Shown one piece after another: positions 15,258-15,282 of a stretch of DNA of 23,248 bases. The notes under the pieces are model-generated. The model did no database searches, had not been told where the DNA came from, and saw only the letters and a program-made list of their open reading frames with translations. This stretch comes from a virus (taxonomy: Duplodnaviria; Heunggongvirae; Uroviricota; Caudoviricetes): the IMG/VR virus record IMGVR_UViG_2537562015_000009. The stretch is one strand, 5' to 3'. The position numbers and the translations under genes are program-made. Numbering within the stretch: the stretch's first letter is position 1; the number at the start of each line of letters is the position of its first letter.

Positions 15258-15282
15258 TTGTAAGATATGGATATTCTTACAA
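15258..15282. promoter_or_regulatory. Palindromic operator-like site upstream of kinase gene
   Basis: TTGTAAGATAT-GG-ATATTCTTACAA, about 25 bp near-perfect inverted repeat ending 18 nt before the kinase ATG; overlaps -10-like TACAAT (15278-15283). Confidence 0.4.

Follow-up and report, generated by a model that had tools for sequence, protein, structure and literature searches.

The stretch of DNA analyzed here (hereafter the window) comprises the 23,248 nucleotides of IMG/VR virus record IMGVR_UViG_2537562015_000009 and is a defective lambdoid prophage of Escherichia coli. Several ETEC genomes match positions 15100–16950 at 100% identity, and E24377A matches them at 99.9%; there, the counterpart of this segment is annotated as Q, a Ser/Thr kinase and a PP2C phosphatase. 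The genes and signals in and around this segment are as follows:

14461–15156, plus strand: antiterminator Q (Pfam PF06323, 5e-84)
15140–15168, plus strand: putative PR'-like late promoter TTGCAA-17-TACATT, read from the sequence, adjoining the end of Q
15203–15230, plus strand: tR'-like intrinsic terminator AAACCCGC-TTAAAT-GCGGGTTT with a T run (repeat search and terminator scan)
15258–15282, no strand assigned: palindrome TTGTAAGA-TATGGATAT-TCTTACAA, spanning about –15 to +10 of the predicted cassette promoter
15291–15296, plus strand: Shine-Dalgarno (SD) sequence GGTGAG of the kinase; GTCGGTG[AG]G is conserved in E. coli, Raoultella, L115 and Yersinia
15301–16065, plus strand: Ser/Thr protein kinase, 254 aa (Pfam Pkinase, 2e-33; PADLOC mad6/PD-T4-6/Stk2-like; RefSeq annotation)
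16062–16805, plus strand: PP2C phosphatase, 247 aa (Pfam PP2C_2, 2e-14)
16877–16903, plus strand: intrinsic terminator AAGGCTGCC-CTCA-GGCGGTCTT with a T-rich tail, closing the cassette (our own scan)

The geometry of PR' was kept in two close relatives, as TTGCAA-17-TATATT in 55989 and as TTGCAA-17-CAGAAT in L025, which is an IMG/VR contig with a kinase at 94% identity. Together with the strong terminator at 15203–15230, Q and PR' make up the classic Q/PR'/tR' order. Other prophages have Q and PR' in common with the window up to approximately position 15192 and carry different cargo beyond it. The short RNA from PR' to tR' gave a weak, sub-threshold Rfam match to isrK at 15166–15227 (14 bits, E = 1.8), which is not significant. 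Downstream of the cassette, ARAGORN predicted four tRNA genes after the methylase, at 18472–18781 (Met-CAT, Lys-TTT twice and Gly-TCC); different tRNA sets are found at the same place in relatives, namely Ile/Thr/Gly in E24377A and Ile/Arg/Arg in 55989 and STEC388. A C-terminal Lom fragment (19157–19402) is followed directly by a tail-fibre gene (19424–22438) and an assembly protein. After the tRNA genes, no lysis, terminase, head or tail-shaft genes were found within 18939–22974; the prophage is therefore defective, and its late transcript would mainly serve the kinase/PP2C, methylase and tRNA cargo.

There is a 4-nt overlap between the kinase stop and the PP2C start, and PP2C followed the kinase in every contig to which kinase homologues were traced, which came from E. 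coli, Raoultella, Yersinia, Hafnia, Providencia, Xenorhabdus, an Enterobacter-like organism, Serratia, Photorhabdus and Pantoea. A pattern scan of genome contigs, for which the back-translated patterns amounted to generic Hanks-kinase motifs, gave a single relevant match (L031). A terminator was located 5–130 nt after PP2C in all 12 cassettes checked with our own scan, and the one in Hafnia was confirmed with a tool. The cassette always occupied a lambdoid late region, in the gap between Q and lysis genes or between lysis and terminase genes, and it adjoined three families of Q (PF06323, PF06530 and PF03589). Its presence varied among related phages: L004 has the same Q and PR' followed by other cargo, and in L122 a small ORF and a methylase come directly after Q, without the cassette. 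We regard the kinase–PP2C pair as a self-contained moron, with its own predicted promoter and terminator enclosing the two genes, placed directly after Q, PR' and tR'. The sequence after PP2C, including the terminator (16866–16960), is homologous to positions 3470–3560 of L122, the tR' region right after Q in kinase-less Stx-type phages. It looks as if the cassette had been inserted between PR'/tR' and the small-ORF/methylase module, leaving one terminator on each side.

Two observations concern the start of the kinase gene. The kinase frame is open from a TTG at 15226, and some database entries (P0121, P0123 and P0131) have a 279-aa kinase whose translation would run through the palindrome. 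Because all homologues begin at the methionine of MEEQ or MDE behind the conserved SD sequence, this extension looks like an annotation artefact. In E. coli STEC388 (L003, 3289–4011), the right end of IS1 abuts GGTGAGCTTAATG, and the junction corresponds to window positions 15290/15291. This locus has lost Q, PR' and tR' together with the cassette promoter and the palindrome, and the SD sequence, an identical kinase and PP2C are intact; the two genes thus persist without the palindrome, and they are presumably driven from IS1.

We then placed the palindrome relative to a promoter of the cassette itself (P_kin), for which the following elements were read:

15239–15244, plus strand: –35-like hexamer TGGACC
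15261–15266, plus strand: –10 hexamer TAAGAT, within the left arm of the palindrome
15273, plus strand: predicted transcription start (A), 7 nt after the –10 hexamer, from promoter geometry
15275–15282, plus strand: right arm TCTTACAA, at about +3 to +10 in the initial transcribed region, a variable part of the leader
15278–15283, plus strand: TACAAT, at about +6 to +11 of P_kin

With the promoter read as TGGACC-16-TAAGAT, its –10 hexamer is held by the left arm TTGTAAGA, and a transcription start at about A15273 puts the dyad centre at about –3 and the right arm at +3 to +10. The window promoter has 8 of 12 consensus matches, compared with 8–9 of 12 in the orthologues, and the –10 hexamer of the 55989 type is TAATAT. 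A standard promoter scan of the window did not report P_kin (8/12, 16-nt spacer), and the scan tool independently gave the orthologous TAGACT-17-TATTAT in Hafnia. The preliminary description had the palindrome overlapping a –10-like TACAAT; the overlap with a –10 hexamer holds for TAAGAT in the left arm, and TACAAT itself does not qualify as the –10 of the operon, as its best –35 partner (TAGTTG-17-TACAAT) yields only 7 of 12 matches and the hexamer is not conserved outside the E. coli clade. TACAAT and TTGTAA are spaced 14 nt apart in the window and 12 nt apart in L025.

We compared 14 leader types, including those of E. coli, Raoultella, Yersinia, Hafnia, Providencia, Xenorhabdus, Photorhabdus, Serratia and Pantoea, and found that 12 of them contain T[AG]GAC 16–17 nt upstream of TAnnnT, with TAnnnT lying 28–38 nt before the kinase start codon and usually preceded by TG. 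According to shuffled sequences, the chance of finding this motif is 0.02–0.04 per sequence with at most one mismatch and approximately 0.002 when no mismatch is allowed. The motif was then applied to four leader types retrieved once it had been defined (L130, L133, L134 and L136), and all of them matched with at most one mismatch; leader types L115 and L128, and also a Pseudomonas homologue (L031), did not fit the strict motif. Because the TAnnnT anchor was built into the search pattern, the independent evidence consists of the –35 signal and the positional constancy alone. Information content peaked at the –35 and –10 elements and was approximately zero in the spacer, in the flanks and in the first 12 transcribed bases, and leader homology to the window fades upstream of the GTCGGTG of the SD sequence. 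These patterns suggest that TGGACC and TAAGAT act as a sigma70-type promoter, with both its activity and its start site predicted. The claim that the operon is not controlled by Q read-through alone is very probably correct, given a promoter-like element conserved across distant cassettes directly upstream of the genes.

Positions 15258–15282 read TTGTAAGATATGGATATTCTTACAA, an inverted repeat of the form TTGTAAGA-N9-TCTTACAA. A repeat search of the window returned perfect 8-nt arms (15258–15265 and 15275–15282) 9 nt apart, and one bulged T allows three additional inner pairs (TAT/ATA), giving a total of 11 pairs over arms of 11 and 12 nt. A near-perfect inverted repeat of about 25 bp is thus present where it had been described, ending 18 nt before the kinase ATG (15301). 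Its rarity in the window is modest. We counted 17 perfect 8-bp inverted repeats with loops of at most 12 nt, compared with 5.9 ± 3.2 in shuffled sequences; the surplus consists of GC-rich terminators, and the approximately five non-terminator repeats match the number expected by chance, so that a single AT-rich 8-bp repeat in 23 kb is unremarkable. TTGTAA-N5-20-TTACAA would be expected 0.02 times per window, a value that refers to a specific pattern tested post hoc. Within the 54-nt promoter region, an inverted repeat of such length appeared in 0.8% of shuffles (P = 0.008); among the other leader types, L136 was the only one whose best inverted repeat over the promoter reached even marginal significance (P = 0.049). 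Matches to the half-site in the window showed no enrichment (10, with 18 expected). The kinase gene contains an exact third copy of TTGTAAGA, on the minus strand at 15630–15637 and some 350 nt farther downstream than the palindrome; this is probably a chance occurrence.

Such counts bear on the possibility that the symmetry is a fortuitous by-product without function, in which the left arm is fixed as a –10 hexamer and the right arm is complementary to it by accident. We consider this unlikely. About six perfect 8-bp repeats are expected per window, the region is AT-rich, the right arm falls in the least conserved segment of the leader, and one P ≤ 0.008 among approximately 12 independent leader types is unsurprising; the hairpin also has little predicted effect on SD accessibility, as described below. 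However, the pairing extends both inward and outward from the core, and the pattern of substitution between close relatives also argues against accident.

A search of 5,426 E. coli genomes returned the 33-nt palindrome region in 48, and at no other locus than this one. Three close leader variants are known: the window type (at least 19 complete genomes), the 55989 type (approximately 29 complete genomes) and L025; a pattern scan of metagenomes, IMG/VR and the 90% protein cluster added none to these three. The dyad is confined to the window and 55989 types; 11 of the 14 leader types lack it. L025, the nearest outgroup, differs from the window at 12 leader positions, nine of which fall in 15268–15285, covering the loop and the right arm; its dyad is degraded, and the segment from –35 to –10 and the SD sequence are kept. 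Between the window and 55989, the kinase genes diverge by 3.0% (20 of 23 changes at third codon positions), and the leaders differ at only two of 68 positions, 15264 (G>T) and 15276 (C>G). These positions are the two partners of one stem pair, converting G-C to U·G, and they therefore retain pairing in RNA. We calculate that two substitutions placed at random in the 68 nt would fall on one of 8–15 pairs and leave it pairable with a probability of approximately 0.002–0.003, which speaks against a fortuitous symmetry. The same objection is raised by the leader divergence of 2/68, which is at or below that at kinase third codon positions (20/255). The two changes also alter promoter-like motifs, TAAGAT becoming TAATAT and TCTTACAAT becoming TGTTACAAT, which creates TGnTACAAT. 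Taken together, the promoter and the SD sequence are conserved, presumably by selection, and the mirror symmetry is a feature of one sub-lineage.

The retention of TACAAT in the right arm is relevant to another interpretation. Sigma70-dependent promoter-proximal pausing occurs at lambdoid PR' and at lacUV5, and the right-arm TACAAT, at about +6 to +11 of P_kin, might be re-read by sigma70 so that early elongation pauses; the palindrome would then merely represent two –10-like sequences in opposite orientation. The –10-like hexamer is kept in all three E. coli-clade variants amid diverging neighbours (TACAAT in the window, TGtTACAAT in 55989 and TACATT in L025), and the C>G change in 55989 creates a TGn extended –10-like motif. 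On the other hand, the position of the hexamer depends on the predicted start site, other cassette leaders contain no comparable element, and pausing of this kind has no need of the complementarity of the palindrome. We consider this interpretation very improbable.

The preliminary description attributed control of the operon to a dimeric DNA-binding protein, with the small winged-helix-like ORF or the prophage repressor as candidates. In this case, a phage- or host-encoded dimeric repressor would bind the dyad, centred at about –3, and block RNA polymerase at the cassette promoter. The location would be ideal for repression, since it extends from –15 to +10 across the –10 hexamer and the start site, and the near-perfect dyad (local P = 0.008) is retained in two sub-lineages. 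Both leader substitutions hit the same position of each half-site, so that a key contact could have been altered in both; however, they leave the half-sites unequal (TTGTAATA compared with TTGTAACA). Moreover, no cassette outside the window and 55989 types has the dyad, L025 having lost it; its right arm lies in the most variable part of the leader, and neither the window nor the 5,426 E. coli genomes yielded a second copy of the site. A distance of 17 bp, or approximately 1.6 helical turns, separates the arm centres and places the arms on different faces of the helix. Finally, no DNA-binding protein was found to be inherited together with the palindrome: Pfam searches identified no DNA-binding domain in the kinase or PP2C, and the two named candidates could be rejected.

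The coordinates originally given for the first candidate (17027–17222) are out of frame, and the real ORF is as follows:

17025–17222, plus strand: small ORF of 65 aa (phrog_331), part of the methylase module

This ORF was present in E24377A, in STEC388, in an Stx-type phage without kinase or palindrome, and next to a methylase in Providencia; within ±3 kb, it was not found in 55989, which keeps the palindrome, or in L025. Because it is missing within 3 kb in the palindrome-bearing 55989 and present in a kinase-less phage, the small ORF belongs to the methylase module, and a distribution that tracks the methylase instead of the palindrome rules it out as the regulator. Its Pfam match to TrmB (E = 0.006) was below threshold, and an AF2 single-sequence model of low confidence (pLDDT 61) was uninformative. 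The second candidate is the CI-like repressor at 6024–6698 (HTH_3 and S24 domains; true start ATG at 6698, minus strand). Two copies of TGTAAC-N4-GTTAC, at 6698–6712 and 6746–6760, lie between this gene and a divergent P22-Cro-like gene and are probable immunity operators. The repressor was rejected as the binder of the palindrome, since its operators (GTAAC-N4-GTTAC) are different and E24377A carries an identical palindrome together with an unrelated immunity region.

We also compared the palindrome with the sites of other regulators. The TyrR box (TGTAAA-N6-TTTACA) and the RcsAB box (TAAGAAT-ATTCTTA) have half-site letters in common with it and spacing that is off by 5 bp, and the consensus sequences of LexA, CRP and IHF do not fit; we treat these comparisons as leads only. 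A literature match for both 8-mers (PMC12658196) was discarded, as it merely concerned the sense and antisense oligonucleotides of an unrelated Aca11 site. The hexads TTGTAA and TTACAA fit the RelB core [A/T]TGT[A/C]A of relO (PMC2812701); this would favour an operator, but relO tolerates no spacing between its half-sites and the hexads here are 13 bp apart. Considering both sides, we find an operator rather unlikely, and the proposal of a dimeric regulator is not supported by these data.

We next considered the palindrome at the RNA level. The isolated hairpin had a folding energy of –11.8 kcal/mol, which was stronger than that of shuffled sequences (z = –3.2); it is AU-rich, comprises 10–15 bp and ends 9 nt before the SD sequence. 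The 8-bp core stem contains two G-C pairs, and the 10-bp extension adds none. In L025, the top of the hairpin is destroyed (z = –0.09). The larger leader fold did not differ significantly from shuffles (z = –1.1 to –1.6), and an Rfam search with the palindrome gave no match at E ≤ 10 other than noise. Pair changes, which are available from three sequences only, comprised one G-C to U·G exchange, two one-sided compatible changes and four broken pairs. The mirrored double substitution, which amounts to a hint, is the only sign of constraint on the symmetry. If the symmetry is functional, the RNA is most likely the level at which it acts, being the best supported.

Two specific functions of this RNA were rejected. 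One is masking of the SD sequence by the hairpin in read-through RNA, since the hairpin added just 1.6 kcal/mol to the predicted SD opening energy, a value computed without a shuffled-upstream control. The palindrome is not a second terminator either: the stem is AU-rich, it is followed by UUU only and no longer U tract, and it is absent from the list produced by the terminator scan.

Apart from the palindrome, a segment of the –35 region, which is present only in read-through RNA, was complementary to the SD/start region in several cassettes. The duplex P-values were 0.002 in L111 (~3935–4010), 0.008 in L025 (~2935–3000), 0.026 in L128 and 0.034 in L134, and Fisher's combination over 13 types gave approximately 2e-4 (our own calculation). 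Read-through transcripts of those cassettes may thus be translationally masked. In the window, complementarity between the upstream segment and the ribosome-binding region was not significant (P = 0.3).

From these results, we consider it fairly probable that the palindrome represents positions –15 to +10 of the cassette's own promoter, that the operon is transcribed both from this promoter and by Q-dependent read-through, and that the symmetry is restricted to one lineage instead of marking a conserved operator. The first input would be a sigma70-type promoter able to work in the lysogen, and the second would be Q-antiterminated read-through from PR' at induction. Transcripts from P_kin would start inside the loop and thus could not form the hairpin; those started at PR' alone would carry both arms, and these could fold into the AU-rich hairpin of 10–15 bp. 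Any role of the hairpin is one that we infer.

A more elaborate version assigns a function to this arrangement. The promoter would be nested in a hairpin-coding palindrome such that two classes of transcript with different 5' structures arise: RNAs from the cassette's own promoter would be unstructured, and PR' RNAs, whether Q-antiterminated or leaking through, would bear the full hairpin, so that processing or translation of the mRNA for a potentially toxic kinase would depend on transcript origin. Another possibility is binding of the dyad by a host nucleoid protein phosphorylated by the kinase, which would create an autoregulatory loop analogous to that of MvaU in KKP. We regard such elaborations as quite improbable.

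The favoured reading, a cassette with its own promoter and a second input from Q, shifts attention from the palindrome to the cassette, in that a kinase–PP2C pair with conserved promoter and terminator recurs in lambdoid prophage late regions across Enterobacterales. It looks like an accessory module expressed in the lysogen, possibly with a role in defence. A private promoter would make expression of the kinase and PP2C possible in defective prophages without much Q-dependent late transcript. The location of P_kin indicates the fragment to use in fusions and the bases to target by mutation; changing TCTTACAA to AGAATGTT is an example of a right-arm change that spares the –10 hexamer. The palindrome, if functional, is a local embellishment.

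Several known systems can be compared with this locus. Morons, in the concept of Hendrix and Juhala, are extra genes with their own promoter and terminator between lambdoid core genes. The two-gene cassette resembles them in its sigma70-like promoter and intrinsic terminator, in its position between Q and lysis or lysis and terminase genes, and in its patchy occurrence in close prophages. It differs in that its promoter lies approximately 7 nt after the T run of tR' and that the cassette also falls wholly within the Q-dependent late transcript; its expression is predicted. With promoter-overlapping operators such as lacO and LexA boxes, the palindrome has in common a dyad across the –10 hexamer and the transcription start, whereas it has no cognate protein, no second site and no conservation in orthologous cassettes, and its arm centres are 17 bp apart. 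In relO of E. coli RelBE, the opposed hexads abut (TTGTAATTACAA), four hexads are required, and insertions between the 12-bp half-sites abolish repression (PMC2812701). The outer hexads of the palindrome fit the RelB core, but its architecture fails as a relO, with two hexads and a 13-bp gap, and the window contains no relBE.

At the RNA level, the lambda N leader forms an RNase III-sensitive structure, a leader hairpin just upstream of the SD sequence in a lambdoid transcript. The palindrome hairpin would likewise be a stem-loop in a long phage transcript that ends a few nucleotides before the ribosome-binding site; unlike such leader hairpins, it is an AU-rich structure of 10–15 bp that belongs to no Rfam family and shows one pair-preserving double change. 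As for the gene products, the kinase scores against the PADLOC models mad6, PD-T4-6 and Stk2, and the cassette shares a prophage-borne Hanks-type kinase with the single-gene defence kinases PD-T4-6 and Stk2 (PADLOC) and with KKP, the kinase-kinase-phosphatase prophage module (PMC11341870), and a PP2C partner with the latter. Unlike KKP, the cassette has a single kinase (254 aa, no additional domains) ahead of PP2C and resides in lambdoid late regions; with a single kinase domain before PP2C, it falls outside the definition of KKP (PMC11341870), which it resembles in concept only. All three types of element, namely morons, dyads that overlap a promoter and hairpins in leaders, are already known, and the cassette and its palindrome can be described in their terms.
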